Shown in pieces: positions 10,542 to 32,000 of a stretch of 32,000 bases of DNA. The first letter of the stretch is position 1; each line of letters opens with the position of its first letter. The translations under genes were made by a program, and so were the position numbers. The stretch is taken from positions 1,342,546 through 1,374,545 of the forward strand of contig OY969931.1 of the NCBI GenBank assembly GCA_963704705.1, in the 5' to 3' direction. The notes beneath the pieces were generated by a model. That model saw only the letters and a list, made by a program, of their open reading frames with translations, searched no databases and was not told where the DNA came from. The DNA comes from an uncultured bacterium. GTDB lineage: Bacteria; Patescibacteriota; Gracilibacteria; UBA1369; PNNO01.

Positions 10542-13202
<2,661 letters not shown>

Positions 13203-13247: not shown

Positions 13248-13295
13248 GCCCGGCTTGCCGTAGTTCTCAAACTATTGCAAGACCGGGCTTTTTTT
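13248..13295 (+). terminator. Rho-independent terminator of the high-GC gene
   Basis: GCCCGGCTTGC (13248-13258) pairs with GCAAGaCCGGGC (13277-13288, one bulged A). An inner TAGTT/AACTA stem closes on loop CTCA. A run of seven T follows (13289-13295). Confidence 0.8.
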
Positions 13296-13307
13296 AAATT
13301 TTAACAC

Positions 13308-13336
13308 TTTACCCAAAATCGTTTTTCTGGTATAAT
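13308..13336 (+). promoter_or_regulatory. Putative promoter with extended -10 for the giant-gene operon
   Basis: -35 TTTACC (13308-13313), 17-nt spacer ending in TGg, perfect -10 TATAAT (13331-13336). It lies 36 nt upstream of the ATG at 13373. Motif match only. Confidence 0.4.
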
Positions 13337-13372: not shown

Positions 13373-16300
13373 ATGCGGACTTCAAATAATTGGCTTGAAA
13401 AGCGAAAAAACAGAGAACGTTTACTTGCCAGAACCCAAAACATCGCGATTGGCAGTTTAATAGCGGCTATAACCATTGGCCCGCTTATTTATTTTGCCGC
13501 AGTCGCAGTTCCAATCGAAATAAGAGAAGCGCGAAATGTTCAATTGACTGAAGAATCAGCGGCTACTCCTGAGATTGCAATTGAAATTCCGGCTACTCCG
13601 GAAATATCACTAAGTGAGAAACCAATTAAATTTCCTGAGCCCGTTAAAGAAATTAAAAAAATAGAAAATCCGAAAGTTGAATTTAAATTGTCAGATCTTC
13701 CTAAAGAAAACCAACAAAAAGAAATTGTTTCAACAGGTAAATCAGAATCGGCTGAAGCAAAATTTATAGATACTCTTAAAACAGAATTTAAAGATCAGGA
13801 GAAAGATGTCCAGATTAAAGTAACTAACAAACAAGTTGATGGGCAAAATGAAAAATTGGTAGTTATGGAGAATCTCGATATTGATGACGGACCACGACAA
13901 ATCCGAAAAACAGAAGATGCTGACACAGTTGCCAGAGCAGCGTTGAGAAAATATTTAAAAACAAATCCAAAAGAAGTTGATTTTGATATATACACCGATA
14001 CAAGCAAACTTACAAATTCAAAGAAAACATATCAGCTCGTTGTTTCTGATATAAAAACAAACAACGGAAAATGGTATGTAACATTCGAGCAATACAAAAA
14101 TGCACTTCCTGTTTTTGATGGAAATATAAAAATGATTTTTACGGAAAGAAAAAATTTAATTGCAATAACTGACAATATCAGAACTGACTTCCCGGAAATT
14201 GAGGACTTCTCAATCACAAATTCAGAAGCTTCAGGAGCCATACAAGATGTTTTCACGCAATGGGATGAAGGCGTAGATAAAATTGGATTTGTAAACAAGG
14301 GATATTATAAAAACAAACCAGCTTTCAAAATTGAATTGGAAAGTCATAATCCATTAGGAAATTTTGAAGTTCTTGTGGACGGATCAAACGGTGATATTGA
14401 GAATGTTAAGGGAGATATAAGGCTTGCTGATGAAACAGGTTATACAACAGAAGAGCTTGAAGGACTGCGTGCTGGAAATCCTTTACCTTACAACCCCGTA
14501 GTTGATAAAGTGGACCCCGTTCTTTACGATGTAGGTGAACGCAAACCTGAAGAAGAAAATCAAGTTTATCCTTCAGTTGAAGAACTGGATCAAATAAAAA
14601 TAAATGCAGAAAATACAGCGCTTCAACAGGAATTAATTGCAAATCCAGTAAATCCTGAAGCTCCACAACTGGAATTACAGAGAAGCGAAATTTTCCAAAA
14701 AATAATTGCACCGGTTTATGCCGAAGAGAAATTCCAGGTTCCTGAACAGCAAATTACAGGGCCTTCAATCGGAGTAATTCAGGAATTTTCTGCTACAGGC
14801 GATGCTGCGGCAACTCCTGATGTAGGGGCCACTCTTGAACCTGACATTGTAATTCTTGATACAATTTTCAGTCAGGTTTTAGGAAAAATTTATCCTCAAA
14901 CTCCGGATCAGGAACCAATAATTACACCTTTTGCCAACGCTTATACATTTTTCAGCCAGAAACAAAATATTACAGATGAAGGAGGATATTTTGAAAATAA
15001 AGATTTGGACTGGTACAGCGTATATCTCGATGGTCCATATGTGACTGTTTATGATGATGACGCCAGTTCGGATGCGGAAATCAAAGATCGCACGCCTGAA
15101 GACCCTTTTGTTTGGGATGAAAACAGTGCGAGTCTCGCAGCAATAAATGCGTTCTATCATACAAATGAAATGCATAAATATTTTGCTGATAAATTTAATT
15201 TCGATACAAATAAAAAAATTCCGGTTACTGTAAATTCCGAACTTGTTGATCAATATTTAAATGGTTGCGGTGCATGGTTTGATAATTCTGATAAATCCAT
15301 TGAAATGGGTCGCGGCGGTACCGATACCTGCCCTGAAGATTTGAATTATGCACTTTCTAGTGATTTTGTTTATCATGAATATACACACTTTGTAGTTGAA
15401 GAAATAACACATCTTCCAAATATTACAGGGGCTGAATCCGCAGCAATGGGTGAAGGACTTGCGGATTATTTTGCTGCATCTGCTAATAATGACCCTGTAT
15501 GGGGTGATGTGGTTGCCCCTAATGATACCAGGAATTTAAAAAATACTTTAAATTATAATTATGATCTTAATGGTGAATCTCATCATGATGGACAAATTTT
15601 TGCAGGAGCATTATGGGATTTAAGAACTTTGATTGGCCCTATTGAAGCTGACAAATTGGTATTTAACACTTTATATCAAGATAGACTGCATTTTGAAACC
15701 TTCATGTATGGAATGCTTATAGAAGATGATGATAACAATGATTTTTCTGATGGGACACCTCACATGCTTGAGATTTTAGCTGCATTTGAAAATCATGGAA
15801 TCGGACCAGGAATAGCTAACTTTGATGGGCTTCCTGTTGATCCTGAAGCCTGGACAGATTTGCTAGGTGAAGAAGCGCCTCAGGGACAGGAAGATTCAAT
15901 ATTAAACGCTATAAGTGCAGGGTGCGAGGGCTATGATGATGGCACTTCAATAGTAATCCCTGATAATGTCACCTGTACTTTTACTGGATCCGGAAGTCGT
16001 TCAATAATTTATTTAGCGGGTGGTGCTGATCTTTATATCGGAGATTCATCTACTTACGGGATTCTCTCAACTAGCGGCGATACCAGTATTTATGGAACAA
16101 CAGCAATATCATCATTAAGAATCGGATGGTATAGTGGTGTTTATGGCCGCTTAACAGTTGGCGATGAATTGTTCTTAATTAATGGCGGTTGGCTGTATTC
16201 GGGATATGACGGATCAAATTTTGCAAATGCAAATACATATCTTCATGTTACAGGCAGTACGCAAATATATAAACAATCCACCAGTTATACTTCAAGCAAC

Positions 16301-19300
16301 TTTGTTTCCATTTATAATGATGCAACAAGTGATAATAATTTGGGTGTTTTATATATAGGAAGAAGTGACACTTCTACTTCATTTTACGGAAACCAGAGTT
16401 ATTTTTACAATGGAGGTTCGGCAAGAACAAATGTCGACTATTTCAGACTGGATAATGGCGGCTATATAAATAATTATACAAACTTTTATGTGACTACTAG
16501 TAATTCGGATATTTTGAACGGGTCAATTATGTATAACCGAAGTAGTGCTATTTTCAATAACGCTGGATACACGACTTATGTCTGGGACGACTCTCTTTTT
16601 GATAATGACGGGACTGTAAACAGCAATAGTTTTGACTTCCGTGATTCAGCTGAATTAAATATGGATGGCGGCACAATTAATGGAACCACCGCTATTTTCT
16701 ACAATACTTCATGGCTGGATTTGAATGCCGGAACATTTAATGTAACAACAGCAACATATAACAATTCTACAAATGCGGATGTTGCAGGAGGTGATTTTAG
16801 TCCAACAACTGCAAATTTTTATACCACTTCTTATGTAAACCATTATACTGGCGGCAGTACTCATATTACCAGTTTAAACCTATACAACAGTAGTTTCTGG
16901 AACCATTACGGAGGAACTACCAGTATTGGCAACTTTAATATGAATGATACAAGCTATGCCAGGGCTAATACCAGCGGCCAAACACTAACAGCTACTTCAT
17001 TTAATCTGTATGATTCGGCTGTACTTGAAAAGGCTTATTACTCCGCAGCTTCAAATGGTGATGGAAATATTTCCGCAACTAATATCTGGCTACAGGGTAC
17101 TTCCAGCCTGGACATTTTGCGATCAACGGGTAGTGTAACTGCTTCCGGTACAATAACTGTTGATGACGACAGTCAATATTATCAGTCTACAGGTAGCACT
17201 ACAGCATCTTATTTTAGTGTAGTAGGTACGACTCAAACAACGCAGAGTGGCGAATTGTATTTGACGGGCGGTACTTTAACTGTAAGTACAAGATTATTAA
17301 TAAATGAAAACGGTTGGGTTAATCAAGACGGAGGTACGGTTGATGCCGTACTTGGCCAACTTAATAGTAATGCCGCTATATACGACCAGGATGGCGGTAC
17401 AGCGGATTTTGACACGCTCCGGATGTACTTAAATAGTCATTATCAAAATGACAGTGCGGTAATTATAAGAGTAGGAGGCGGAAACATGACTGATACTTCG
17501 GTCTTTGAAAATAATTATACTGCTGGAGGTACAGCAACGGTGACAATACCTTCAGGTTTAACAGGCCAACAATCATTCTTATTAGACACTTCCGCACATT
17601 TCTACAATAGATATGGGGGAAGTTTCACTACAGATACAAGCGGATCATCAAACGGGGATACTATCGACGTAATAGACTCATCAACTTTTGATAATTACGG
17701 AACATTAACCACTTATAATTTAAGAATAGGATGGAACGACGTAGATAAAACCCAAATAGGAGGCTTTTATCACAACTTATACACTACTTATGAAAGTAAG
17801 ACGAACGTACATGGCGATTTAATAATGTACAGAGGTTATATGAGTAATGATGCAGGCAGCACAACTGCATATGGGGTAGTTGTGAGTGGGAATGTAAATA
17901 TGAAAGGTTACTGGCAAGGAACAATATGTGACAATTCTGATTTAGAAAATAGTGGATTATTCTCTGTCAGTGGAAATATTACAATGACCAGTAGTACCCT
18001 GACCCCTGCTTACACCTGTACAGAAATCAACAACTTTGCCAATGCTTCGACTTTACATAAGTTTTCTGCAGCTAATATTACGTCTACATACGACTATTCT
18101 GACATAACAAATGCAGGCGATTTTTATGTTACAACTGGTTCAATAAACATGACTTCTACACATGCATTCTTTCAGAATTCTTCTAGTGGTTATGTTTCGG
18201 TATATGATGACTTTATTATAGATTCAACAGGTGCATATGCAGTTTATCTTGATAATTCCGGAGATTTTAATGTTGGAATTTCAACAACAAGTAGTCTCCA
18301 AGTAGCGGGAAATTCATATGTTGATAATAATTCGGGAGGGACTATAAATGTTGATGATGCTGCAACTACAAGTACAACCAGGGGGCAATTTACAATTTAT
18401 CAAGATGGTTCTTTGGTCAATGAAGGAGATGTAAGTGCAAATCTATTCTGGGTGGATAGTGGCGGAGGAACATCTGTAACGGGATTTGAAAATCAAAATG
18501 GGGGCACTATAACTTCAACATATAGCGGCAGTGCAACCTACGGAATGAAGTGTATTTACGCAATATGCCAACATAAAAATACTGCGACGAGTTTAACGGT
18601 GGCAAGTGGATTGTTGGTACAAAGTGATTTAAGTTATATTACGAATTTTATAGTCGGAGCACCAGCAAATATAAATAATGCTTATATTAACTGGAACAGT
18701 ATGGTAACCATTAATTCTAACGCCACTTTAACAGCATCTGGCCAATGGCAGGTTTTAGATGATCAAAATGCCACAATTCCTGATTATGACGGACAAATAG
18801 TCGTTACGTCAGGATCGACCTTTAATGGGGGATCTTCTGCAAACGTATACTTAGGAGGGCCAGCTAATACGGGCGGAGAAATTGACAATTCAGGATCTTT
18901 TTATGCTAACAATTTGACACTTTATGATAGTAGCCTATTTACCAACCAAAGCACTGGAGATGTCGGAATCTCAAATACATTGCAGCTCGCATATGAATTT
19001 ACGCCATCTGCATTTATTAGAAGTTATGAAAATTATGGTTCTACCGAAGCTACTTATTTGCAAGTATACGGAGATAATTCAATATTTAATTCGGATGGAA
19101 CTTCAGCTCAAATTTATATTAACAATGATTTGGACATTAATGGAGGCAAACTCACTGTTGCCAGCGGATCAGTAGGCGCAACAATTGATGGTAATGCTTA
19201 TATTTATTACAAAAACGGTTCAACAACTTCAGGCGAGCTTTATAATTTTGATAATAGCTTTGTTGTTGCAGGAAAAATGTACGTGTCAGGTTTTGTACAA

Positions 19301-22300
19301 AATGGTAATAGTTTATTTGGTGCCGCAATGGAAATCCGAAGCAATACAGGCTCAGAAGATTTATATGTACATAGAGGCGTATCTGCCGATGGATACGGTA
19401 AATTCCTCAATTCTGGCGCTACCCTAACGGTTGGTGATGCTTCCGGAGGAGAAATTAAAGTAGAAGGAATTCAAAATATTTCTTTACCTGGCTCTTACTA
19501 TATTGCTTTATTCCAAAATTCAGAGGGGGCTATACACAGAGCAGGCCATGTTAATACTGATGAAATGTATATAAAAACCGCAGCGGATTTACTCAATTAC
19601 ACCGACCTTAATGTAAACAATAAATTATGGACAGGCGAGGACGAGTCGCCAAAAACCGTTACCAACTATGCAACTGGCGATATCGACGTAATAGGTGATG
19701 GTGATTCATGGTTTTATAACAATTCAACAGTAACAAATAGCGGCACATTCGATGCAACCGGAACATCCGGCATCATGAAAGTAATGCAAACTGTACAAAC
19801 AACCACCTTGGATAACTACGGCACTCTTTCTACTGATAAACTTTGGAATGGTAGTTCTGCTGAATACTATGGAGGTACAACCAGCAATCTCACATCAGGA
19901 ACTATTACCGTCAACGACAGTACCTCAGATACAGCACAAAACTACGGTGGAACAATAATACAAAACTCAAGCGGTTCAATAGATATCAGTTCGGGCCGCT
20001 TTACCACAACAAGTAATTCCGGCTCGTATGTAGGAACTGTTACTCAAAATTCTGGTACAGGTGAAATTAAATTGGGCGAATTATATATTACAAATTATGG
20101 ATATTATGAAATTAGCGGTTCAAATACCGATCCCGGAACTCATGTTTATGATACCGTATCCAGTGGAAACCTGGCCATTTCGGGAACAACTTCCGAACTT
20201 TATATTAATGGTTCGCAGGTATACGTAGATGGTGCATCTAACATTTATGCAAATGGAACCCTTACAAACAATGCACTTAGAGTTTCAGGGTCAGGTGGTT
20301 TTGTTTCTGATGGTTTGACAACCGTTTATTCAGGCGGTTTATTAAACTCAGATAATGATTCCACATGCCTGTTTAATAGCGGATTAACAGTCCAGGGAGA
20401 AGCAAACATCCTTGATGATGCAACGATAATCGGAAATTTAATTATTGATTTAGGCGGACTTGTTAATTTTGGTTTCCAAAGTCCGGTAATTCCAAACGTA
20501 GGTGCGATATATGTATCAGGTTATCTGTATATGTATGGTTCCAATACGGTATTGAACAATAATAGCCAGTTTGCTGTAAACACATTTGGAACTTTTGGAT
20601 CAAGCACAGGCACTCAAACTGCAACTTTCAACAATAACGGTTATACCGACGTTTCGAACAGTTCTTTTGCAGCATTTGGCAATGACATTAATGTACAAAA
20701 AACAGGTATCATTAATAGTGATGGCCCTTTAACCACGGGCGACAATATGATTGTCAGTTCTGGCGGAACAGTGAATTTAAATGATAATGCGGCCAGTCCA
20801 GATGACTATTGCCAAACTTGGATAGGCAATGACGGCACAGGAAATTTAACAATTAATCAGGATGGCACAGATATAGGTAAAGTGACTGTAAATTGTACAA
20901 GAACAACTAGTTCCGCTGAACTGACCGTATTTAGTAATACCTATGTATATGGCGAACTTGAATTAAACTCGGGAATGCTAACCCAAAACATGATAATAGG
21001 TGAACCAAGCGCCGCTTATACTGGCTCTGTATATCATAAACCTATAGTTGACCTTATAGGCGACAATGCTCCGGATATTGTATTTTTACTAACTATTACT
21101 CATGATTTAACCATAAATCCTGAAGGTGAAATTAACGTTAGTGCTTTATCATATATTAAGCCTTCATCAACTCATCCATATGCAGGTGTATTCGGAGGCA
21201 AAGGTCAGTATTCAAGTGCAACAGGAATTACTGAATATGGAACCATTGAAACCGGTTCAGTAAATTTTGGACGAGCAGGAGAAGATGCTGACCGTGATTT
21301 AGGTGCCGGAGGAGGTAAAGCTCAGGTAGTTGTTGGAAACGACGCAGTTGTAAACGGACCGATAAATGCGGACGGAGAAAGTGTAAAGCCAAATTTTGAT
21401 GTTGGCGGCGGAACAACTTATGATTGCGCAGGAAGCGGCGGAAGCGTATTCCTTACTATAGGTGGAGCCTTGAGCGGAAGCGGAGATATTACTGCAAGAG
21501 GCGGCGACTCAACTCCTGATATTTCAGGAGGCACAGCTGTTGCAATGGCTGGTGGTGGTGGTCGTATATATATAGAATATTATGATAAATCAGCTTATAC
21601 CGGTAAAGTAAAAGCAAATGGCGGTGCTGCCGACAGAGATACTTCATCTGGCGGACTAAACCTATATCACGCCGGAACAGGTACTGTTTTCTATAAATGG
21701 ACAGATCCATGGGCAAATGAAAATGACGGTACACTTGTAATAGATCCGGATGGTTCTTGGGCTGATATAGATTTCAGTGGTACCGGAACTTTAATAGATG
21801 CGACTACATTGGCAAATCTAACCGATAAATATTTAGATGTTGAAAGTGTTCAAATTGAACCTTACGGAAGTCTGCACCTGCCAGGTACCAATTGTGCGGG
21901 TGGAACCTGTTCAAAATTACAACAATGTTTAAAGGCAACTCCTGCTTCATTCTTTTTGGATACATTAGGAGAAGTTTTATATAACAGAGACCATGGAAGT
22001 GGAACTATAAAAAGCGTATGTATTGCTACACCGGATCCTCCTTATAAATTATTTATCAATGACCCTGGAACAGGAGCCCAAAGCGCAATTAACGCCAAAG
22101 AAGGTGACCCTATTGCAACATTGTTTAGCCTTGTTCCTAAGTTCTCGGCTATACATTTTGATGGACGCTTTGACAGTACAGGTACTTATGCGGATGCAAG
22201 TCCTCATCAGGCAACTCATTATGAGATACAAATAGCTGACACTGACGCGACTTATCCAACAAGCCCTCAATATTTATTTGATGATAATGCAACGCATATA

Positions 22301-23326: not shown

Positions 23327-23333
23327 ATATATT

Positions 23334-26300
23334 ATGGTAAAAAAACAAACACAAAAATTCAGCCTAAATCTTACACTTCTAACAATGATATTAAGCATTG
23401 CACTATATGCAATTTTAATATTGATGCCGGGCGTGCAAGCTGTTGATGTGCCTGCGGATGCTGAAGTTGGCGACCCTGATTGCTTCTGGTCTAATGGGCC
23501 AGGCTCTGAACTTTATGTGCCTAGCGGAAAGACTTGTACGATCGACTTTGACATAACAGCAACGAATGTTGCTGGCTGGACCGACTATGCAGTAATAGTT
23601 TATTCAGGTGGTACTTTAGAAGTTGTCGGCAATGGTTCAGACACCAAGCTCGATATTGATGGTGATATATATATAATGGGAACAGTAAATATTGGTGACA
23701 CAAATTCATCAAGCGTTATAAATTTCAGAACAATTAACGGCGGAGATTTAACTCTTGGAAATAATGCCACTGCTTCAATGACAGTAAGAGATAACTCAGG
23801 GGCAGGAACAAATCGTGTGGCTGTTACCGGTACCACTTATGTTGGAGATAGTTCGCAACCCAACACTCCAACCTTAACAATAAACTCAACATACCCTTTA
23901 ACTTCTTTTGAAAAAATTGATATTTACGGGCACATGAATGTGAACGGAGGCACAACAACTGCCTCGGGAATTGAATTGATGGACCTGGATAGCAATTCTG
24001 CCGAACTAAACATTGCAACAGGGGCAATTGTAACTATCGATAGTTTCTTCTCCCCTCCGCCCGGCCATCCATTTAATGGGTATGATATTTCACTTGGCCT
24101 CGGAATGTGGGCACATGCAGGTACAACAACCGTAACAGTCAACGGTACTTTAAATGCGCCTACTTCTGGAGGCGATGTATCAGTGATAGTGGGATCAAAC
24201 ATAGGCGCAAGCCATGCTAAGCTGGTTGTCGGTTCAACCGGAACAGCTAATTTCCAGGAAACAAACACATTCGCAATCCCTGACACTCTTACCGGCCCAA
24301 CTAATGCATTGTGGATATTAAGCGATATGCCTTATGGGCTTGAAGTTCAGGGCGCAGTTAACTCTTATATGTTTATACGGAACAATGGTTACATACATAT
24401 AACCGGAGGCAGCGGCTGGGTTGGCGGGAACAACAGTTATCAACAGGCTTCAGCCTTAAAAGTGGGCGATGGTGATACTTTAAATATAACAGGTATGGCG
24501 GATATTGATGGTGATTCTGTAATTGATGGGACATTAAACGTGACCCGCTGTACAAAAATAACAAATGATGCAACATCAACTTTCAGTGTAGGCTCGACCG
24601 GAACATTCAATACAAACACTGCTGGCACAGGTTGTACGCTGGCAAATACCAGCTCAAATGACGGCTTGAATGTTCAGGGTACAGATACAGTATTAAATAT
24701 TGCGAACGGTTCTGGCGGAGCAGGTGACCAAACTGTATTTATTAATTATGGCGACTTTAGAGTTGATGACGGCGGGACAGTTGATGCAAACGGATATTAC
24801 ACTGTTGAAGACGACATGATTGTTGAAGGCGGTTCAAATGTTTCAATGCAGGATACCGATATAGGTGATAATTTTAAAGCGGATAATGTTCTTGTTAATC
24901 CGGATTCTGGTGGTGCTAGTTCGGCCTTATCTATTGAAGCTAGTTCGGCGTTTGATTTGGTAGTCGGGCAGGTTGATATTGGAACAACTGCAAGTGCCGG
25001 AACAGGAGGAATAACCGTTCATGGAACACTTAATGTGCCAACATCGTCAACTTATAATTTTAAAGTATCCGACACGGGCCAGCTGGTAATTGAAGCCGGC
25101 GGAAAAGTTAACGATGATGCTTCAAGCGGCCAATTCTTAATTGAAGGCGGGGTAGTGGTCGTACGAGGAGCTTCCGGTAATCCGGGACTGCTTTATATCG
25201 CTGATCAGGAACTTCAAATGAGTAATGGCTCGACAACGGCATCTTTAATCATAGGTGATGCAAGTAATGAATATGGTGTATTAAACAGCGAAGCAACTCC
25301 TGCTGCTGCTCCTGGATTTGATTTCCAGGATGGTGTTTTGGATATTCAATATCATAGCGAAGCGACTTTTAATGATACTGTTGAGCTGTTAACCGGAGAC
25401 GAGATGTATATCGGCGGATATCTTAGAGGAACCGATGGTGTAAAGATAAGCTGCGATTCTGCAACTGTTATCGAATGTGAAGTTGAAGATTCGGGTGAAA
25501 TTAAAGTTGAAGGGTCAGGAACACCAACTATTAATGTATTGGATGATCTAAATCTTGTTGGAAAATTAAATGGTAATGATGGCGCTGGCGATGTTTCTAT
25601 AACAAACAATTCTACTATCTCAAGCAGGTCAATTAATGGTGAAGATTCATATTTTTATATAATTGCAAATAATTTAACTATAGGAACCGGTTCTTCTATT
25701 GATGTTTCGGAATTTGCCAGATGTATCAGTCCGGGCGGAACTCCAACTTACGGAGGAAGTTTTGGTGGTGAAGGTATGGGCGGCAACACAGAAACTTTCG
25801 GGGAAGCAAAATATACAACACCACCAAATTATGCAACAAGTTCTCCAAATCCTATTGGAATGTGTGGTTATAATAGTTTTGGAGAAAATGCTGGATTTGG
25901 AGGCGGTGCGGTTTATATAGATGCTTATAATATTATTGATATTAGTGGTCCTATACTTGCAAATGGTGAGGATTTTCCTGGTAATGATGCCGGTTCAGGT
26001 TCCGGCGGACTAATAGTTATTAATCATAATATTACACATTCTGATACTTCCGCTGATTTTAAAGGAGCTGCAAACATTGAGGCGGATGGCGGGAATGGTT
26101 CAGGTACAAGCAACAGTTATGGTGGCGGCGGCGGAAGAATTGTGATTAATTCAATATTATTCGAACAACCTGATGACGATGAAACAGGGCCTCCTCACTA
26201 TGCATATGAAGGCGGCATTTATGCAAATGGCGGAGGAACAAGCGGTTATACAGGCGATTACGCTGCAGCTGGTACAATTGTATTCCTTGGTGACGACAAC

Positions 26301-27464
26301 AATCCAAACGGAACTTTGATCGTTGATCAGGGTAACAGGCCGCTCGGAACAAGCGCTAAGGAAACAAATATTACCGCAACCGGTGATTATGTCTTTGACA
26401 GAATTGAATCTAAGCAGGGTGCAAAACTCACTTTTGATACTGCTCCGGGAACTGATCCCGTTAGCTGTTTTGTGGATGACGGAACTTCTTCAGTTGATTT
26501 AAACGGCGGAACTTGTACGGCAAATGCTGACAAGCCGGATACTTTATATATAAACAATACTTACACTGGTGCTCAGTCAGGCGATGAACCTTGGTTCACT
26601 GTTCCTGTTACAGTTAGTGACGGAACTCCGGAATTCAGTTTCAAATTCAGAAACCCTGAAAATGGAGCCCAAGAAGGACAGTATGCATTAATTGAAGTTG
26701 ATGATAGTTCGGATTTCTCTTCTCCTTTATGGAGTGCGAGTGACTCAAACAATCCGGTGCCAATCGCTACTGTGGGCGAAAGCGCAAGAACAGAAGATAT
26801 AGGATACGGCGGGGCAGCGTTAACTGGCGGAACAACATATTATGTAAGAGCAGCATTCTCAAATTCTGATGGTTCTGTTAGAGGTCTTTGGACTCACCGC
26901 GACATGGGTAATTATTATCAATTTGATCTAAGTCCTTCATATATGGAAATTTCTAATGATTGTAGTGATGTTATTGCTGTTGATAATGTCGGAAATCCAT
27001 TGCAGTACAAACCTAACGGTATGTACGGAAGCGGAAGTTGTACGTTTACATTAACTTCAACTGATACTGCTTGGGACCTTTACTACAGCAAAATCAGTGA
27101 TGCTTCGATTCTTAATGACGGCACAGGTACTTATGTTTGGGCTGATATTGATAATGCTGGTGCTGATTGTACTGTTGATAATACCGGCAATACCGAAGAT
27201 GAAGAATATGGCTTTAACTTAACAAGTTTAACTGGATTTGGAAGCGCGATTGTTGAAACCGATGCTGAATGCAGCTCTCTATACACTTCTTCTGATGTAT
27301 TTGATATTGAAACACTAACCAATAAAAACAAAATTATTGAAGGCAATGGAACAACAATTTCAGGTGCAACACTTGATCTTGTAATTCACGCGAATGTTGA
27401 TCGATATACAGCTGCAGAAACATATGAACTCGACACTATTATGATACTTTCTGACACACCTTAA
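23334..27464 (+). CDS. Giant (1376 aa) secreted beta-solenoid-like surface protein, paralog of the C-terminal two-thirds of gene 1
   Basis: Starts 7 nt after the gene 1 stop. Signal peptide ...ILILMPGVQA|VD. Cys50/Cys68 cap, N/T/S/G-rich repeats, Gly-rich cassette (25671-26336), a module with the Y-Y-V-R-A motif (26532-26930), and a C-terminal domain ending ...IMILSDTP. TAA stop. Confidence 0.92.
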   Translation: MVKKQTQKFSLNLTLLTMILSIALYAILILMPGVQAVDVPADAEVGDPDCFWSNGPGSELYVPSGKTCTIDFDITATNVAGWTDYAVIVYSGGTLEVVGNGSDTKLDIDGDIYIMGTVNIGDTNSSSVINFRTINGGDLTLGNNATASMTVRDNSGAGTNRVAVTGTTYVGDSSQPNTPTLTINSTYPLTSFEKIDIYGHMNVNGGTTTASGIELMDLDSNSAELNIATGAIVTIDSFFSPPPGHPFNGYDISLGLGMWAHAGTTTVTVNGTLNAPTSGGDVSVIVGSNIGASHAKLVVGSTGTANFQETNTFAIPDTLTGPTNALWILSDMPYGLEVQGAVNSYMFIRNNGYIHITGGSGWVGGNNSYQQASALKVGDGDTLNITGMADIDGDSVIDGTLNVTRCTKITNDATSTFSVGSTGTFNTNTAGTGCTLANTSSNDGLNVQGTDTVLNIANGSGGAGDQTVFINYGDFRVDDGGTVDANGYYTVEDDMIVEGGSNVSMQDTDIGDNFKADNVLVNPDSGGASSALSIEASSAFDLVVGQVDIGTTASAGTGGITVHGTLNVPTSSTYNFKVSDTGQLVIEAGGKVNDDASSGQFLIEGGVVVVRGASGNPGLLYIADQELQMSNGSTTASLIIGDASNEYGVLNSEATPAAAPGFDFQDGVLDIQYHSEATFNDTVELLTGDEMYIGGYLRGTDGVKISCDSATVIECEVEDSGEIKVEGSGTPTINVLDDLNLVGKLNGNDGAGDVSITNNSTISSRSINGEDSYFYIIANNLTIGTGSSIDVSEFARCISPGGTPTYGGSFGGEGMGGNTETFGEAKYTTPPNYATSSPNPIGMCGYNSFGENAGFGGGAVYIDAYNIIDISGPILANGEDFPGNDAGSGSGGLIVINHNITHSDTSADFKGAANIEADGGNGSGTSNSYGGGGGRIVINSILFEQPDDDETGPPHYAYEGGIYANGGGTSGYTGDYAAAGTIVFLGDDNNPNGTLIVDQGNRPLGTSAKETNITATGDYVFDRIESKQGAKLTFDTAPGTDPVSCFVDDGTSSVDLNGGTCTANADKPDTLYINNTYTGAQSGDEPWFTVPVTVSDGTPEFSFKFRNPENGAQEGQYALIEVDDSSDFSSPLWSASDSNNPVPIATVGESARTEDIGYGGAALTGGTTYYVRAAFSNSDGSVRGLWTHRDMGNYYQFDLSPSYMEISNDCSDVIAVDNVGNPLQYKPNGMYGSGSCTFTLTSTDTAWDLYYSKISDASILNDGTGTYVWADIDNAGADCTVDNTGNTEDEEYGFNLTSLTGFGSAIVETDAECSSLYTSSDVFDIETLTNKNKIIEGNGTTISGATLDLVIHANVDRYTAAETYELDTIMILSDTP

Positions 27465-27470
27465 TATATT

Positions 27471-30400
27471 ATGAAAAAAACAAAAACTAACATCTTGGCG
27501 GCTATAATCGGAATTTTGCTCGGAAGCATCAGTATCTGGCTTATGCCTGGTGCTTTGGCGCAAGATTCTAGTGTGGCGCAGATTCAGGTTGAAGTAAAAA
27601 GCGGATGTAACTGGCAGGGAACTCCTTATGCATCTGATTTATGGGTACTCGATGATACTATTTGTATACTTACAGGCACTCATGATATCGGTGCAAACGA
27701 TGTGGTGGTTTATGAAGATGACGGTGGAGGCGGCCAGCTCGGAGGAATTTTGATTATTGGAAGTGATGGAGTTGATACAGACATCACGGTTGGCTCTACA
27801 CTTATAAATAATGGAACACTTGAAATTGGTGTAAGCGGAGATCCTGCAACTAATTCAAATTTGCAGGTTAACGGAACTTCAATAATTTCAGCAACCGGCA
27901 GTGATGGTAATTTGAATATTCTCGCAAACTCTGACACAAGCAGTACCTGCGGGCCTTCATTTACTGATCCTTGCGGTAATAATACTATCGAACTGGGTTC
28001 ATCTTTAACAATCGCTTCTTCTTCAACAGGAGGAACATTTACGAATAATGATGACTCAACAACAAGCACGATTGATTCAATATCAATTTACGGACCTACA
28101 CAATTAAATCACGGTCTGCTTGAAAACCTTGCAGGAACAATCACTGTGACAAATCAAATCGACATGTACGGCTATGGTGAAATCAATAATGACGGAATAC
28201 TCACGCTGGGAAATGTTGCATCTTACTGGAATAATTATGCAAGTGCAGATAACAGCGGTACCTTTAATTCACCAAATACAATCAATATATATAGCGGTTC
28301 AACTCTTACAAATACCGGTACTTGGAATGGCGGCACACTTTACTTTACCGGTTCAGGAACAAGTGAAAACAATTCCGGAACCATGAATTTATCTACATTA
28401 AATTTCATTTCAAGCGGAACATTCAACAATACTGGTACCGGCGATATTAACGTAACCGGTAATATAATATTAAATAGCGGCGGTACAATTAATAATAATG
28501 ATACCGGAACAGTAACTGTTGATGCAGGAACTTATATTTACAATGCATCCAGTGATATTAATAATAATAGTTCGTGGCAAACCGACCTATTGCAAATTGG
28601 CCTTTTGCCAACAGCGATCGGTGGTAGTTTTAACAATTACGGCTCACTTAGCTTCCCTTCCCCTTCTGTTACGTCAATGAACATTATCAATGGTGGTGAT
28701 CTTAATAATGAATCTACCGGAACTATCACTGTTCCAACAAATATTTATATGGAAGGTGCTTCAGGACAGATTTCAACAATTACAAATACCAATACAACCG
28801 ATACAGACGCAATTGACGTTACAGGACAGATTAATATGGATGCTTATTCTTTAATTAACAATTCGGGTAATTTATCAACAAGCGGAACAAATAATATTGA
28901 TATCCAGGACAATGGTGCGACTATAACAAATACAACAAATGGATATATCAATCTTAAGGGTTCAGCTCAGGAATTTAATTTTGATGTTGCGATCGATAAC
29001 GATGGAACAATCAACACTGTTTCTTCTGCATTAATTTTATCTGATACTGCTGATTTAAATAATACAACCAACGGTATTGTGGATATTAATGGTTCAGGCA
29101 AGGACTTAACCTTAAACAACTCCGCAAACATTGATAATGCGGGAGTATTTAATGTAATTGATGCGACTTATCTTAATGATACAAGTACTACAACCCAAAC
29201 AGCAGGAGACTTTAATACAGTCACGCTTTATCTAAATGACACAACTTCAGCCGAAGCCAACTTCACAATGTCAGCAGGAACTGTTGATGTTACAGGCTAC
29301 ACTTATGTGTACGACGGTGGGACCGTAAACAATAATGTTATTAACATTAATGGCGGAACTTTAAATACAGCAACATTAAGAATTGGTGAAATCGGATCTA
29401 CAAACGGCGGAATAATCAACGTCGACTTAACCGGAAGCCTAAGTGTAATTGGCGGAACTTACGACCACATTTACAAAGGAACGCTCGATATCAAATCAAC
29501 AAGTACCGCTACCACTCCTTTCACTTTTGATGACAGGATATATATAAATGGAGACGGTACTGAAAAAGGTATTATAAATCATAATGGTTCGGGAACCGTA
29601 CATGCATACTCCTGGTTATCCGTATATGAATACGGTGAAATAAATATTGATAATGGAATATGGAATCAACATAATTCCGATTTCAATGTGCTTTCAAATG
29701 CCGCAGGAGATATACATGGCGAATTAAATATCGGAACAAACGGAACACTTTACGATGTTAACATTTTATATGCAGGCAGATACGATTACGGGGTAAGTCA
29801 AAACAGGCCCGGCGGAAACATAGTCAACAACGGAAACATGACTGCACCTGGAGGAGGCGGCGATTTGATGTGGCTTAACTGGGGCGGAAGACTTGAAAAT
29901 TACGGAACAATTGATTTGGGTCCAACTGGTTATATCGAAATGGATACAAGAGAAACTTTCTGGACTGCAACTGGCAGATCAAATTATTTCCTAAACGATA
30001 CAGGCGCAAGCTTTACATCCAATAATTTCCTTATGTATGACAACAATGACGATCCCGGGAATTCACATGAACGGGATAATTTAGTTGATAATAACGGTTC
30101 AATTACAATTTATCATGAAATGTATCTAGGTAATTCGTCTTATGACGGAGGTATTATTAACAACAATAGCGACATACAAATTGCTTACAAATTATGGGTT
30201 TATAAAGGTGGTGTATTCAACAATAATCCTGATGCTACCGTAACCGGAATAACTTCGGGAACTCCTGATACCATGAATATATTGACTGTACGTGGAGCCG
30301 ACGCATTAGGCAACAAAGCAACTTATAACCAATTCGAAGGTACAGATTCCCCTACTCAGGCATATAAAACAGTAACCGACAATTTGTCGATAGGCTTTAC

Positions 30401-32000
30401 CGGAGCTACCGATAGCGAATTCTTAAATTATGATTATATTAAAGTCGGGCAGTTAGATGTATCTGCTTCAGGCAATTATGAAGGATTACTTGGTACAAAC
30501 ACCGCACAAACTTCTTATCTTTGGAACCCTGGAACCTCTTCAATTTACGGTACTGTGCTGATCGACGGAGACGCGACCGAAGTGGCAAAATGGTACTCTG
30601 AAAACGCGCTATGGAATTACGCAACCGGTGTTATTACAAACAATGGAATATTGGAAAAAACAACAAGTGTAAATAATCTTGAAAACAAAGGCGGAACAAT
30701 TCGTTCCGGAATTTATTCTACATTCATACTTCCGGGTCTCTCTCCTGGTTTCGAACATGAAACCGGCGCATTCACGGAATTTGCAGGTAATGTTACCGTC
30801 TCAACTATTGAGGCTGATGGCGGATATATGTGTTTTGGCGAATATAACGATATCGGCTCAACCTGTGAGCACAGTTCAACTGATCCGGTAACTGAATTTA
30901 CGGAGATAAACGGTGCGCCTACAATCTTTGATGATAACGGCTCAACTATTGATATAGCTAATGACATGACGTTCCTAAACGGTGTTAACGGCCTTACTAA
31001 TGATATCTTCTATATTTACGGCGGTTCAGTTGTAAATCAAACCGCTGATTCTTATGTACAGTTGCAGGATCATGTAAGTATGATCGTTGACGGTACATCT
31101 TCTAGTTATGCTTCGGAGGGTAATTTTGATATTAAAGGAACGGGTATTGGAAATCACGGATATTTAAGAGTAAGAAACAGAGCTAACTCACAATTAAACG
31201 GTCCAACAAATAATATCGGATCCATAATAATGAGCGGGGGTGTGAATGGCGATCAAACCATGCTTCAAATTGGTTCGGGAGCAACGGTAAATATTATTGA
31301 TACCTCAAGCGAAAACGGTAAAACAGGTGCTCTGCTTATTGGTTTAACTGATGTACCCGGAAATGAAATTTTAGTTAATGAGGGTGTTTTAAACTTAAAT
31401 TCAGGTGGAACTCAGAACATTCATTTAGGCATCGACTCCCCTGTAAACTGGGGTACCGACGGCATTACCATTGCCGCGGGTGGCTCATTGCAGCACACTA
31501 ACGGCTCAAATGGAACTCTTGATATTAATGATACTGGATTTATTTATGTCCAGGACGATTCAAACGCTGACCTTGATATGGATATCAACGGTTATACATA
31601 TATCGGCGGACATTTCGATCATACAAACAAGCATCATGGTGCGTTTGTTGACGGTCAGTTCAGATGTCAGGATTATCTTGATGTTGAAAGTGACGGTTTG
31701 ATGGATGTTGGATTAAACGGTGTCGTTACCGTTGCCGGTTCAACAACCGATGTTTACGGGGATGTGGAGTTGGACGGAACTTTGAATTCCGGCGACTTAA
31801 CAGTTTATTCGGGCGGTATTATTTCTTCAGGTGACGGTTCAGATGTAACAACCGGCGAAGGATGCGGACCTTTAGGCCAGTTCGGATGCGGAACAACAAC
31901 AAATTTCTATATAAATGCTGATAGTCTTGATGTTCAAAGCGGAGGTAAAATTTCATCTGACGGAGTGAGTGAAGACGAAACAAATACTACAATTACAACC
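27471..32000 (+). CDS. Third giant secreted beta-solenoid-like protein (>1510 aa); 3' end beyond the window
   Basis: Not in the ORF track because it has no stop. I translated frame 3 by hand from ATG 27471 to nt 32000 (exactly 1510 codons) and found no stop codon. It starts 6 nt after the gene 2 stop. Signal peptide MKKTKTNILAAIIGILLGSISIWLMPGALA|QD. Composition and repeat style match genes 1 and 2. Confidence 0.88.
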   Translation, partial: MKKTKTNILAAIIGILLGSISIWLMPGALAQDSSVAQIQVEVKSGCNWQGTPYASDLWVLDDTICILTGTHDIGANDVVVYEDDGGGGQLGGILIIGSDGVDTDITVGSTLINNGTLEIGVSGDPATNSNLQVNGTSIISATGSDGNLNILANSDTSSTCGPSFTDPCGNNTIELGSSLTIASSSTGGTFTNNDDSTTSTIDSISIYGPTQLNHGLLENLAGTITVTNQIDMYGYGEINNDGILTLGNVASYWNNYASADNSGTFNSPNTINIYSGSTLTNTGTWNGGTLYFTGSGTSENNSGTMNLSTLNFISSGTFNNTGTGDINVTGNIILNSGGTINNNDTGTVTVDAGTYIYNASSDINNNSSWQTDLLQIGLLPTAIGGSFNNYGSLSFPSPSVTSMNIINGGDLNNESTGTITVPTNIYMEGASGQISTITNTNTTDTDAIDVTGQINMDAYSLINNSGNLSTSGTNNIDIQDNGATITNTTNGYINLKGSAQEFNFDVAIDNDGTINTVSSALILSDTADLNNTTNGIVDINGSGKDLTLNNSANIDNAGVFNVIDATYLNDTSTTTQTAGDFNTVTLYLNDTTSAEANFTMSAGTVDVTGYTYVYDGGTVNNNVININGGTLNTATLRIGEIGSTNGGIINVDLTGSLSVIGGTYDHIYKGTLDIKSTSTATTPFTFDDRIYINGDGTEKGIINHNGSGTVHAYSWLSVYEYGEINIDNGIWNQHNSDFNVLSNAAGDIHGELNIGTNGTLYDVNILYAGRYDYGVSQNRPGGNIVNNGNMTAPGGGGDLMWLNWGGRLENYGTIDLGPTGYIEMDTRETFWTATGRSNYFLNDTGASFTSNNFLMYDNNDDPGNSHERDNLVDNNGSITIYHEMYLGNSSYDGGIINNNSDIQIAYKLWVYKGGVFNNNPDATVTGITSGTPDTMNILTVRGADALGNKATYNQFEGTDSPTQAYKTVTDNLSIGFTGATDSEFLNYDYIKVGQLDVSASGNYEGLLGTNTAQTSYLWNPGTSSIYGTVLIDGDATEVAKWYSENALWNYATGVITNNGILEKTTSVNNLENKGGTIRSGIYSTFILPGLSPGFEHETGAFTEFAGNVTVSTIEADGGYMCFGEYNDIGSTCEHSSTDPVTEFTEINGAPTIFDDNGSTIDIANDMTFLNGVNGLTNDIFYIYGGSVVNQTADSYVQLQDHVSMIVDGTSSSYASEGNFDIKGTGIGNHGYLRVRNRANSQLNGPTNNIGSIIMSGGVNGDQTMLQIGSGATVNIIDTSSENGKTGALLIGLTDVPGNEILVNEGVLNLNSGGTQNIHLGIDSPVNWGTDGITIAAGGSLQHTNGSNGTLDINDTGFIYVQDDSNADLDMDINGYTYIGGHFDHTNKHHGAFVDGQFRCQDYLDVESDGLMDVGLNGVVTVAGSTTDVYGDVELDGTLNSGDLTVYSGGIISSGDGSDVTTGEGCGPLGQFGCGTTTNFYINADSLDVQSGGKISSDGVSEDETNTTITT

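Follow-up and report, generated by a model that had tools for sequence, protein, structure and literature searches.

Three giant, probably exported beta-helix proteins with a shared C-terminal domain in a conserved Patescibacteria operon

Two kinds of cell-surface gene cluster are among the described systems closest to the locus reported here. The WxL clusters encode small WxL proteins together with large ones that combine beta-helical adhesin domains with a WxL domain at the C-terminus; a DUF916-DUF3324-TM protein inserts a hairpin into WxL, and AlphaFold predicts that WxL and WxLIP pair by beta-strand complementation (PMC9772566, PMC10599100). The Pam pilus is characterised by a truncated-Ig C-terminal domain (CTD); its subunits are the pilins PamA/B/E and a tip with just one domain, PamT, while its chaperones (PamC/D) and its anchor (PamR) are fixed in the membrane (bioRxiv 10.64898/2026.03.03.709456).

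The window, i.e. the whole stretch of 32,000 nt that was analysed, from an ultrasmall (Patescibacteria/CPR) bacterium, contains three co-oriented giant ORFs reaching from 13373 to its end (Table 1). We read these 18.6 kb as the opening part of an operon conserved in Patescibacteria, whose giants would be Sec-exported, rod-like surface fibres held at the cell surface via a common CTD, in the manner of WxL clusters or Pam pili; we give this reading as a whole a somewhat better than even chance. The ORF sizes in the preliminary description, their 58% share of the window and the gaps of 7 nt (ORF1/ORF2) and 6 nt (ORF2/ORF3) were confirmed from the ORF calls, and both junctions have the sequence CCTTAA(A)TATATTATG. 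The strong terminator upstream of ORF1 ends a GC-rich gene and delimits the transcription unit of the giants on its 5' side. The site that had been called a good extended -10 promoter did obtain the highest score and was the sole TG-preceded -10 match between 13000 and 32000, but it is a consensus match alone and the number of promoter-like matches in this region equalled the chance (shuffle) expectation.

Table 1. Positions of the features of the giant-gene locus in the window
Feature	Position (nt unless aa is given)	Strand	Remarks
Intrinsic terminator, hairpin and U run	13248..13295	+	-26.3 kcal/mol, z = -7.3, 0/200 shuffles as stable
Promoter-like site TTTACC-17-TGgTATAAT (extended -10)	13308..13336	+	37 nt 5' of ORF1 ATG
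ORF1 (giant 1)	13373..23326	+	3317 aa
Giant 1 hydrophobic segment, aa ~23-50	13439..13522	+	Kyte-Doolittle scan, single segment, maximum 2.16
Giant 1 FTP/PepSY-type propeptide, aa ~169-349	13877..14419	+	structure model (pLDDT 72-89) and Foldseek
Giant 1 M36/M4-like gluzincin catalytic domain, aa ~490-830	14840..15862	+	Pfam, motifs, Foldseek
Giant 1 two-Cys cap C851...C868, beta-helix start	15923..15976	+	both Cys invariant in 11/11 family proteins
Giant 1 hypervariable N/T/S/G-rich beta-helix shaft, aa ~869-2539	15977..20989	+	composition, identity profile
Giant 1 conserved C-terminal module with Gly-rich beta-helix (GGGRIYIEY...), aa ~2540-2946	20990..22210	+	homologous to ORF2 aa ~750-1090
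Giant 1 Ig/FN3-like domain, aa 2947-3044	22211..22504	+	weak Pfam Ig_Rha78A_N, E = 0.016
Giant 1 inserted ~55-aa mini-domain (TSGATGTI...), aa ~3058-3120	22544..22732	+	PHROG matches
Giant 1 CTD, aa 3123-3317, beta-rich, ending ...GNYSMILTLTASTTP	22739..23323	+	hhalign to ORF2/ORF3 CTDs
ORF2 (giant 2)	23334..27464	+	1376 aa
Giant 2 signal peptide	aa 1-36	+	ORF2 N-terminus
Giant 2 two-Cys cap C50/C68	23481-23537	+	nearly invariant in ORF2 family
Giant 2 beta-helix	to ~25700	+	AF2 model; Gly-rich module next
Giant 2 Ig-like domain	26604-26879	+	
Giant 2 CTD	26916-27461	+	
ORF3 (giant 3)	27471..32000	+	open frame to window end, first 1510 aa of expected ~2150
Giant 3 signal peptide	aa 1-30	+	ORF3 N-terminus
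Giant 3 two-Cys cap C46/C65	27606-27665	+	

At least five independent assemblies of Patescibacteria show the order giant 1-giant 2-giant 3. In single-cell genomes and metagenome contigs of relatives giant 3 is followed by genes of ~325, ~190, ~200 and ~447 aa, and the junctions in these clusters, that between giant 3 and the ~325-aa gene among them, measure 5-13 nt. The three-gene operon originally proposed thus stands as to order and spacing, but in relatives it runs on past ORF3; the four accessory genes lie beyond the window and are assigned to the source genome from synteny alone. The low-complexity composition of the ORFs and the almost empty Pfam and NCBIfam results for the giants might invite the thought of an assembly or annotation artefact: repeats could have collapsed, joins could be chimeric, or the long ORFs could be spurious products of low-complexity sequence. 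Against this, the same genes occur in the same order and with the same lengths in independent single-cell genomes and in JGI, ENA and Logan assemblies, homologues keep the motifs at the start, the cap, the catalytic site and the C-terminus, and ORF2 yields a confident structure model. Collapsed repeats are not suggested either, because no tandem or dispersed repeats were found at the DNA level in the locus. We assign an artefact next to no probability and regard it as effectively refuted already.

The giant 1 shaft consists to 47% of N, T, S and G, with 2.6% K+R and 0.5% Cys. Repeats of ~20-25 aa had been described for all three proteins; their degenerate nature and their N/T/S/G-rich, K/R/C-poor composition were borne out, but no clear amino-acid periodicity was found. 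An AF2 model of ORF2 (aa 177-1376) reached a pLDDT of 75.5, with 80-95 and short strands in the first 620 residues. Its top match in Foldseek was the passenger of Antigen 43 (7ko9, 4kh3, 7koh; probability 0.99), with EspP also matched; at 9-14% identity to Antigen 43 the likeness is one of fold. In giant 1 the cap and first coils were modelled at pLDDT 76-89, and the modelled beta-helix covers the first ~100 aa of the shaft. The beta-solenoid fold proposed at the outset is accordingly backed by models for ORF2 and the start of the ORF1 shaft only, and the confident ORF2 model, with the one N-terminal hydrophobic segment of each protein, supports the view that the three giants are exported beta-helix proteins. 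The two-Cys caps lie exactly where they had been placed and are of the disulphide type; the G-x-C ... C motif is kept in 11/11 ORF1-family proteins.

With the type Va autotransporter passengers of Antigen 43 and EspP the giants have in common the three-faced right-handed parallel beta-helix of the ORF2 model, a signal peptide at the N-terminus and a composition like that of adhesins, whereas a C-terminal beta-barrel translocator or autochaperone is lacking. Each giant has one N-terminal hydrophobic segment; scans revealed no second such segment, RTX motif or LPxTG in the three proteins and Pfam no autotransporter barrel, in agreement with the earlier inspection of the sequence. CPR cells are generally described as single-membrane; if this holds here and there is no outer membrane, type V secretion would not be applicable. 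The preliminary description had remarked that no dedicated secretion genes lie between the ORFs. This is true, but it poses no puzzle because signal peptides suffice if there is a single membrane, and in relatives four accessory genes do follow downstream.

Giant 1 is best read as a membrane-anchored zinc-protease zymogen joined to a beta-helix fibre and a putative C-terminal docking domain. An identical protein is on record (NCBI/ENA), and 10 homologues range from 2496 to 3498 aa. The hydrophobic segment is a candidate signal-anchor or long signal peptide, and the motif GSLIAAxIxGPLIYF at the N-terminus is kept in all homologues. Foldseek matched the propeptide model at probability 1.0 to the propeptides of vibriolysin MCP-02 (3nqz_A) and fungalysin Mep (4k90_B) and to YpeB PepSY domains, and Pfam FTP matched weakly. 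The motif HEYTH (aa 668-672, nt 15374-15388) is followed ~20 residues downstream by GEGLADYF; HEYTH and GEGLAD are invariant across the 11 family members, all of which match Peptidase_M36 (best 1.2e-7; the protein of the window barely at threshold, scoring 23.6 bits where the cut-off is 23.3) and five of which match Peptidase_M4. Fungalysin was the top PDB profile match (E = 0.032), and aureolysin was matched by Foldseek at probability 1.0; the catalytic domain is modelled at low confidence (pLDDT <50). The "protease-armed" set of the preliminary description therefore shrinks to ORF1. Giant 1 resembles the pro-proteases of the M36 (fungalysin) and M4 (thermolysin/vibriolysin) families in its propeptide fold, in the HExxH and GEGxxD-type third ligand motifs and in matching both Pfam families. 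It differs in its highly divergent sequence, at or just over the Pfam cut-off, in the membrane helix and ~120-aa linker that precede the protease unit, and in the ~2450 aa of fibre that take the place of a short C-terminal domain.

Between close relatives the shaft of giant 1 has been almost completely replaced. Over ~1700 aa its identity to the homologues P0004 and P0006 is 14-35% per 100-aa window, compared with 57-78% in the flanks, so that the variable middle and conserved ends which had been suggested as a check do hold for ORF1. The hypervariable shaft suggests diversifying pressure from an outside partner, namely phages, competitors or the surfaces of host or prey cells. One might instead suppose that the giants are self-associating or matrix proteins whose beta-helices bind head-to-tail, clumping cells of their own species or building a biofilm or sheath. 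The best structural matches, the Antigen 43 passengers, are indeed self-associating, and giants 2 and 3 are conserved over their whole length, as homotypic contacts would predict. Near-complete replacement of the giant 1 shaft fits homotypic binding poorly, however, a clumping factor would not be expected to carry a protease zymogen, and the resemblance to Antigen 43 is confined to the fold. We consider self-association improbable.

Giant 2 has 11 full-length homologues (40-70% identity), and the orthologues of giant 3 measure 2113-2284 aa (34-64% identity); the window end cuts ORF3 where its conserved C-terminal module begins. ORF1 and ORF2 have ~700 aa of C-terminal module in common (BLASTP E = 7e-10), and the giant 3 orthologue P0012 aligns with ORF2 aa 882-1362 (E = 5e-51), while ORF1 and the part of ORF3 within the window show no significant similarity. 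The paralogy claimed initially is thus modular, comprising cap and CTD in all three and the long shared stretch of ORF1 and ORF2, but not global. The Gly-rich part of the giant 1 module also recurs in unrelated extracellular proteins. The ORF2 copy of the Ig-like domain weakly matches Pfam Ig_Rha78A_N (E = 0.0023), and the ORF2 model matches rhamnosidase structures. The mini-domain of giant 1 matches PHROG families 9851, 693 and 358 of tail fibres (E = 1e-4 to 2e-6), and homologues carry it in differing numbers and at differing places; ~90 unrelated proteins match giant 1 in this stretch alone.

Lyases and phage tailspikes often contain right-handed beta-helices, and the giants could accordingly be carbohydrate-active or lytic enzymes of the pectate lyase or tailspike type that break down the envelope of a host or prey cell, perhaps after release. 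The hydrolase domain and phage tail-fibre mini-domain of giant 1 would fit, as would low-probability matches in the viral library to tail, neck-appendage and pectate-lyase-like proteins. Yet no lyase, glycosidase or Beta_helix family was matched in Pfam or NCBIfam, the top PDB matches are adhesin passengers rather than enzymes, and the conserved CTD and membrane-anchored partners argue for retention at the surface; we consider an enzymatic role of the helices improbable.

The shared CTD, which the preliminary description had overlooked, is the most informative feature of the locus. This beta-rich domain of ~190 aa is homologous in giant 1, giant 2 and the giant 3 orthologues: hhalign gave 89.5% (E = 2e-6) for ORF1 against ORF2, 76% for ORF1 against ORF3 and 99.9% (E = 1e-31) for a giant 3 orthologue against ORF2. 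A CTD HMM also detects stand-alone small proteins in relatives (E = 1.4e-20, 1.9e-11 and 2.3e-11). Because all three giants share this putative docking domain, they most likely constitute a surface fibre set. Pfam WxL matched neither the CTD nor the small proteins, and sequence searches of the PDB returned no relative, both of which count against this reading. Besides the ~200-aa secreted protein, which is a stand-alone CTD, the downstream genes of relatives encode a 191-aa membrane-anchored protein and two Ig-fold proteins, each with a DUF916/WxLIP-like N-domain and a membrane helix at the C-terminus. Among the Pfam matches, DUF916/WxLIP_PGBD ranked first or close to first for 6/7 downstream Ig-fold orthologues scanned (E = 6.7e-6 to 0.006, every DUF916 match below the Pfam cut-off). 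The matches span nearly the whole model and lie directly after the signal peptide, with the membrane helix following; DUF3324 was not detected in these orthologues.

The locus therefore resembles the WxL/Csc clusters of Lactobacillales and Bacillales (PMC9772566, PMC10599100, PMC1534035) in its large secreted proteins with outward beta-helical domains and a common C-terminal domain, in a small secreted protein that is this domain by itself, in Ig-fold proteins with a C-terminal membrane helix and a DUF916-resembling N-domain (recurrent sub-threshold Pfam matches), and in the non-covalent anchoring proposed here, without a dedicated secretion machine. It differs in that the CTD has neither the two WxL motifs nor the D-x-R-GTxAG context, the clusters yielded no DUF3324 or LPxTG proteins, the giants are 2-4 times larger with three large proteins per cluster, and one of them is a predicted membrane-anchored protease zymogen; moreover, the hosts are Patescibacteria rather than Firmicutes.

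The Pam pilus is likewise CPR-specific and Sec-dependent, works without usher or trans-envelope machine, has paired cysteines and a single-domain small subunit, and its secreted subunits are encoded beside Ig-like proteins with C-terminal membrane helices. The giants might thus be Pam-type subunits, either tip adhesins or giant pilins, with the CTD as a truncated Ig-like pilin domain that a donor strand of the next subunit completes, the ~325- and ~447-aa proteins as chaperones resembling PamC/PamD or an anchor resembling PamR, and the ~200-aa protein as a PamT-like tip. The operon architecture agrees point for point. Compared as a whole, the ORF2 model weakly matches the donor-strand subunits CfaB (0.69), PapE (1n12, the reference fold of the Pam paper; 0.66) and TasA (0.57), and NCBIfam CPR_Pam_pilin_C matches a small protein over nearly its full length, but weakly (E = 0.13). 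This was the only match among 28 cluster proteins, however, and no CTD was hit; nothing in the cluster looks like a shaft pilin of two domains and a linker strand, the gene neighbourhood differs and is not that of ATP synthase, and Pam pilins are reported mainly from Saccharimonadia and Microgenomatia. A giant fibre, finally, would be a monomeric beta-helix rod and not a polymer of two-domain pilins. On balance we think a Pam-type pilus rather unlikely.

Under the surface-fibre reading, Sec would export the giants and the CTD would be a proximal docking module for the membrane-anchored Ig-fold partners, binding them probably by beta-strand complementation, the mode that AlphaFold predicts for WxL/WxLIP and that has been proposed for the chaperones and anchor of the Pam pilus; the wall may be a further binding partner. 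The capped N-terminal end of each rod of ~20-45 nm would face outward. Giant 1 would begin as a zymogen held by its N-terminal helix until autocatalytic cleavage of the propeptide, as in M4/M36 enzymes, frees the mature N-terminus; the fibre, anchored through its CTD, would then carry an active protease at its distal tip. Most likely the giants form a fibre set for contacting other cells, and they may function in host attachment. The arrangement would be one that has not been described before.

The three giant genes are co-oriented and abutting, with gaps of 7 nt between giants 1 and 2 and 6 nt between giants 2 and 3, as the preliminary description had reported. Their coordinates were confirmed, and so was the extended -10 promoter match upstream of giant 1, the only one in the region, promoter-like matches overall showing no excess over chance. 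The same sequence was found at both junctions and neither contained a Shine-Dalgarno-like purine run. In relatives a spacing of 5-7 nt is kept at the same junctions and also between giant 3 and the 325-aa gene that follows it. Identical junctions of this kind, together with the conserved spacing, suggest coupled termination and re-initiation.

Features of the stretch, in window coordinates
Feature	Position	Strand	Details
881-aa conserved protein	2206-4851	+	no Pfam match; syntenic in relatives
IS200-type Y1 transposase	4983-5405	+	140 aa; Pfam Y1_Tnp 5e-12; between two conserved genes
539-aa conserved protein	6992-8611	+	no Pfam match; syntenic in relatives
SmpB, mechanical ORF	9909-10946	-	345 aa from GTG; overlaps start of the GC-rich 886-aa gene
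886-aa gene	10542-13202	+	signal peptide; ~7 Cys-rich DUF4215 repeats; upstream of and adjoining giant 1
Terminator hairpin and U run	13248-13295	+	-26.3 kcal/mol, z = -7.3; closes upstream gene
Promoter-like site	13308-13336	+	TTTACC-17-TGgTATAAT; best match in region; 3' of hairpin
Giant 1 ORF	13373-23326	+	3317 aa; ORF call
~55-aa mini-domain	22544-22732		ORF1 aa ~3058-3120; F-x-hG-x-x-hTG-x-TSGATG-x-I...DNG...G-x-L-x-L...G-x-F
Giant gene junctions (both)	23324-23336, 27462-27473	+	CCTTAA(A)TATATTATG; read as CCT TAA (A)TATATT ATG
Giant 2 ORF	23334-27464	+	1376 aa; ORF call
Giant 3 open frame	27471 to window end	+	1510 codons; no stop before window end

The giants are flanked in the window by topA, the Y1 transposase gene and genes for phosphoglucomutase, a cytidylyltransferase, nadE and smpB. 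Five related contigs, taken from single-cell genomes, JGI metagenomes and Logan assemblies, show this neighbourhood and the order of the giants again; giants 1, 2 and 3 measure 2995-3498, 1353-1392 and 2113-2179 aa there and are separated by 5-13 nt. Together with the records and searches given next, this shows the giants to be genuine genes, conserved within a narrow clade, and no artefact. Proteins identical to ORF1 and ORF2 are on the NCBI/ENA record, and every named relative carries the label 'Patescibacteria group bacterium'. Among 185,579 species-representative genomes that were scanned, only three loci came up, each in a Patescibacteria single-cell genome. When 1.84 billion cluster representatives were searched with a profile of the C-terminal module consisting of two rows only, ORF1 and ORF2 of the window, 142 matches were obtained at E <= 0.001, 23 of them at E <= 1e-30; the giant family, a widespread Gly-rich module and the mini-domain were recovered, and no annotated relatives of the C-terminal domain (CTD) were among the matches. 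DNA-level repeats were not found in the giant ORFs, so there is no sign of collapsed repeats. Pfam and NCBIfam scans of the full-length giants were nearly blank; the family is unannotated, and no account of it turned up in the literature that was searched. A prophage or tail-fibre origin was rejected, given the housekeeping flanks in conserved synteny and no phage genes among them. The genetic code of the window is the standard one: TGA ends two of its genes and the giants contain no in-frame TGA, which rejects code 25 of the Gracilibacteria type. Rfam and tRNA scans of the whole window gave no match.

Several other genes of the window deserve comment. The 886-aa gene ends in 'GCSVAGG-hydrophobic-RIRRRK', which by eye resembles a MYXO-CTERM tail. 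With a G+C content of 57%, a GC3 of 0.72 and codons strongly C-ending it stands apart from other genes of the genome (GC3 0.26-0.29), and its stretch at 11-13 kb was considered as rRNA and rejected, since it is a protein gene and the Rfam scan was blank. Syntenic orthologues in related loci (L001:7530-9839, L003:8083-9816 and L004:4633-7347) show 30-52% amino acid identity and a GC3 of 0.62-0.78; non-syntenic DUF4215 paralogues have an ordinary GC3. As the synonymous-site bias has been kept across orthologues of such low identity, simple recent transfer does not explain it. In the related contigs L002 and L003 a Y1 gene equal in length and Pfam family occupies the same position, so the transposase gene is a settled resident and no recent arrival. 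The 539-aa protein falls into a cluster of 10 members at 90% identity. In the SmpB frame residues 202-343 alone match SmpB and orthologues have 148-182 aa; the true start is therefore probably about 200 codons downstream and the overlap with the GC-rich gene not real.

Only one hydrophobic segment was present in giant 1; it spans aa 23-50 and is conserved across all homologues. The region at aa ~169-349 was modelled with confidence (pLDDT 72-89) and matched, with a Foldseek probability of 1.0, propeptide chains including 3nqy_A and those of autoprocessed vibriolysin MCP-02 (3nqz_A) and of the Aspergillus fungalysin Mep (4k90_B); PepSY domains reached the same probability. In fold it is thus an FTP/PepSY propeptide as in M36 and M4 enzymes, while the Pfam FTP match was weak. 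Next, at aa ~490-830, comes a region that carries HExxH and a downstream Glu ligand motif. HEYTH lies at aa 668 and GEGLADYF some 20 residues further on, and all 11 family members keep the residues H, E, H, E and D unchanged. Pfam Peptidase_M36 matched all 11 members (best 1.2e-7) and Peptidase_M4 five of them. For the window copy the isolated domain gave an M36 score of 23.6 bits (E = 3.6e-5), the cut-off being 23.3, and the full-length protein gave no hit. Fungalysin was also the best match in a PDB profile search with the protease region (E = 0.032); the catalytic domain itself was poorly modelled. The giants had been described as a protease-armed fibre set, and the motifs and propeptide fold bear this out, but for one giant only.

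Downstream of the protease, two cysteines (C851 and C868) invariant in homologues form the cap, the two-Cys motif that opens each beta-helix, and the first coils after it had a pLDDT of 76-89. The shaft that follows is about 1700 aa long and has the composition expected from the preliminary description, N, T, S and G making up 47% of its residues, K and R 2.6% and Cys 0.5%. Its cysteines tend to occur in nearby pairs; a hydrophobic-periodicity analysis did not yield a clean repeat length. The conserved C-terminal ~780 aa comprise a Gly-rich beta-helix, an Ig-like domain that Pfam matches weakly to Ig_Rha78A_N, the mini-domain and the ~190-aa CTD. Comparison in 100-aa windows revealed a variable middle and conserved ends, as had been anticipated for a comparison across genomes: identity to relatives was 67-87% in the protease but 14-35% in the shaft against the homologues P0004 and P0006. 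In P0004 the C-terminus was again 57-78% identical, and its first 50 residues were nearly identical to those of the window copy. If the shaft is exchanged by recombination, such a mosaic profile would be expected.

The mini-domain is present in one to three copies, at other positions, in the homologues P0002-P0008, so both its insertion site and its copy number vary within the giant-1 family. Among PHROGs it matches 9851, 693, 358 and 697, families of phage tail-fibre and structural proteins (E down to 2e-6), and in a representative library it also matches about 90 otherwise unrelated proteins of 200-700 aa. The Gly-rich beta-helix module (…GGGGGRIxI…ANGG…), located at aa ~2550-2790 of ORF1 and aa ~760-1010 of ORF2, has no Pfam family of its own and recurs in large extracellular proteins with G8, Laminin_G, LTD, PATR, DUF4347 or Planctomycete signal motifs.

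Giants 2 and 3 open with classical signal peptides ending in LMPG(V/A)(Q/L)A, after which comes the cap. Conservation of giant 2 extends over the whole protein in 11 homologues (40-70% identity). An AlphaFold2 model of aa 177-1376 had a mean pLDDT of 75.5, and its first 620 residues reached 80-95, with strands of 3-5 residues only. The beta-solenoid fold that had been proposed was upheld for giant 2 by this model, whose best solved matches in Foldseek were the Antigen 43 passengers 7ko9, 4kh3 and 7koh (probability 0.99, E = 1e-4). Further matches of the whole model were to rhamnosidase Ig domains and EspP and, weakly, to TasA, CfaB and PapE; matches in a viral library were weak. Beside the Antigen 43 likeness one might place homotypic aggregation by the giants, and beside the giant 1 protease motifs the idea that they are enzymatic beta-helix proteins; we think each of these quite improbable. 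Four of six orthologues of giant 3 align over 98-100% of the part within the window, with 34-64% identity, and the C-terminal third of the giant 3 orthologues matches aa 882-1362 of ORF2 (E = 5e-51).

The model of giant 2 ends in a beta-sandwich-like domain of about 185 aa. Profile-profile comparison revealed that the last ~185-200 aa are homologous across the three giant families, the pairs being ORF2 and ORF3 (99.9%, E = 1e-31), ORF1 and ORF2 (89.5%, E = 2e-6) and ORF1 and ORF3 (76%). Every CTD ends in G-x-Y-...-T-(L/I)-T-...-P. PDB sequence searches with the CTD profile, a small CTD protein and the C-terminal module of ORF2 found nothing. Since cap and CTD are common to all three families, and ORF1 and ORF2 have the Gly-rich and Ig-like modules in common as well, the paralogy, as read from sequence, is modular. 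The claim of a paralogous set therefore holds for cap and CTD, but ORF1 and ORF3 showed no significant similarity within the window. Modules have evidently been reshuffled among the paralogues, to judge from chimeric giants: P0011 and a 3004-aa protein of contig L010 combine the N-terminus of giant 1 (membrane helix, propeptide and protease) with a C-terminal module of the giant-2 type. The latter, at L010:82-9096, belongs to a cluster of two giants of 3004 and 2054 aa followed by genes for 618, 357 and 199 aa.

In syntenic loci of relatives, giant 3 is followed, beyond the extent of the window, by genes for proteins of ~325, ~190, ~200 and ~447 aa, in this order. Each of the ~325- and ~447-aa proteins combines a signal peptide and Ig-like regions with a C-terminal membrane helix that bears a basic tail. 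Of the seven orthologues scanned, six gave a match to Pfam WxLIP_PGBD (DUF916), and in five it was the best match; these matches cover nearly the whole model at E = 6.7e-6 to 0.006, all under the cut-off (best 26.6 bits against 27.3). WxLIP_HBD (DUF3324) was never detected in the downstream Ig-fold orthologues scanned. The ~190-aa protein has a C-terminal helix and the ~200-aa protein is a secreted, stand-alone CTD. A CTD HMM matched L005:18221-18823 (E = 1.9e-11) and, in the more distant locus L004, small proteins after the giant at L004:18297-19031 (1.4e-20) and L004:20110-20769 (2.3e-11); two other small proteins were too divergent to score. A tblastn search of a plasmid collection with the DUF916-like protein, aimed at WxL loci of Firmicutes, returned only homologues on Deinococcus megaplasmids (E = 1e-5, 22-27% identity). 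One of them, on the D. psychrotolerans plasmid NZ_CP034185.1 (13019-18765), with similar matches on three other Deinococcus plasmids, lies in a group of four genes for hypothetical secreted proteins of 291, 281, 175 and 1058 aa, to which the CTD profile gave no match.

The arrangement recalls two known systems. WxL clusters of Firmicutes are composed of a small WxL protein, a large one with a C-terminal WxL domain and a DUF916-DUF3324-TM protein; the large proteins bear outward adhesin domains, beta-helices included, and a hairpin of the DUF916-DUF3324-TM protein is predicted to insert into WxL (PMC9772566, PMC10599100). In the Pam pili of CPR bacteria a donor strand completes the truncated Ig-like CTD of the pilins, next to a single-domain tip subunit, a membrane-anchored terminator and PapD-like chaperones with a C-terminal membrane helix, and there is no usher (bioRxiv 10.64898/2026.03.03.709456). 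Compared by sequence models and architecture, the giant cluster appears to share the logic of both. As in WxL clusters, a small secreted protein consists only of the domain found C-terminally in the large proteins, here the analogous CTD. The DUF916-like matches, all sub-threshold and with no DUF3324 beside them, fall in proteins that start with a signal peptide and end in a TM helix. However, giant CTDs and small proteins lack a Pfam WxL match, the context of two WxL motifs is absent, and LPxTG, frequent but not obligatory in WxL clusters, is missing from the giants and was not noticed in the downstream proteins. That the giants are themselves Pam-type pilus subunits seems unlikely to us. Weak PapE and CfaB fold matches, which concern the giant 2 model as a whole, point that way, and a signal peptide, Ig-like region and C-terminal TM helix would be compatible with the chaperone architecture. 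Yet of 28 cluster proteins a single one matched NCBIfam CPR_Pam_pilin_C (E = 0.13; 12.3 bits, cut-off 55), none of the giant CTDs did, and among the cluster genes we recognised no candidate for a two-domain shaft pilin carrying a donor linker strand. Giant 2 resembles type Va autotransporters such as Antigen 43 in its right-handed beta-helix passenger fold, but the C-terminal 12-stranded beta-barrel translocator is absent and Pfam Autotransporter gave no hit; unlike RTX adhesins secreted by type I systems, the three giants contain zero GGxGxD motifs and gave no Pfam hit to such adhesins. Autotransporter, RTX and LPxTG routes were thus excluded by Pfam and motif scans of the giants, in line with what had been said before.

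On balance we lean, by a modest margin over even chances, towards the giants being a set of Sec-exported surface fibres docked by their CTDs. The earlier interpretation of exported beta-helix fibres, one with a protease, is retained here, but it had missed the shared CTD, a putative docking domain, and the accessory genes; the host attachment that it proposed may be what the fibres serve. After export by Sec the CTD would dock on the membrane-anchored Ig-fold partners or on the wall, leaving the capped N-termini to point outward. At ~0.48 nm for each coil of ~22 residues, the rods would be ~20-45 nm long. Giant 1 might detach from its N-terminal helix by processing its own propeptide, as M4 and M36 enzymes do; its protease would then lie at the distal tip, and its shaft may diversify under pressure from an external partner. 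A bolder version goes further, and we doubt that all of its parts would prove right together. The Ig-like fold of the CTD would be incomplete until the membrane-anchored DUF916-like proteins supply a strand, and the locus would be a third, giant-cargo branch of an ancient usher-less donor-strand anchoring family uniting WxL/WxLIP and Pam in single-membrane bacteria. Giant 1 would be a self-releasing harpoon, a membrane-tethered zymogen that cuts off its own N-terminal anchor and becomes a ~45-nm CTD-anchored rod, with an active tip metalloprotease and a rapidly swapped shaft, breaching or remodelling the host envelope.

Patescibacteria may hold a large share of bacterial diversity, and their cultivated members live attached to other cells. 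To our knowledge, contact molecules are known only for a few Saccharibacteria: type IV pili, a small number of adhesins and, most recently, Pam pili. The direct impact of the locus is limited to one clade because the giant family is rare, unless the structural link proves general. It offers a concrete and testable candidate apparatus in an uncultivated lineage: three rods of different lengths, predicted to be co-expressed and to share a docking domain, of which one would be tipped with a protease and has a shaft that seems to be exchanged between close relatives. If the link between CTD and partner is true, the surface-anchoring principle of WxL clusters and Pam pili would extend to giant beta-helix cargo, and the CTD profile would provide a sequence handle for finding such systems.
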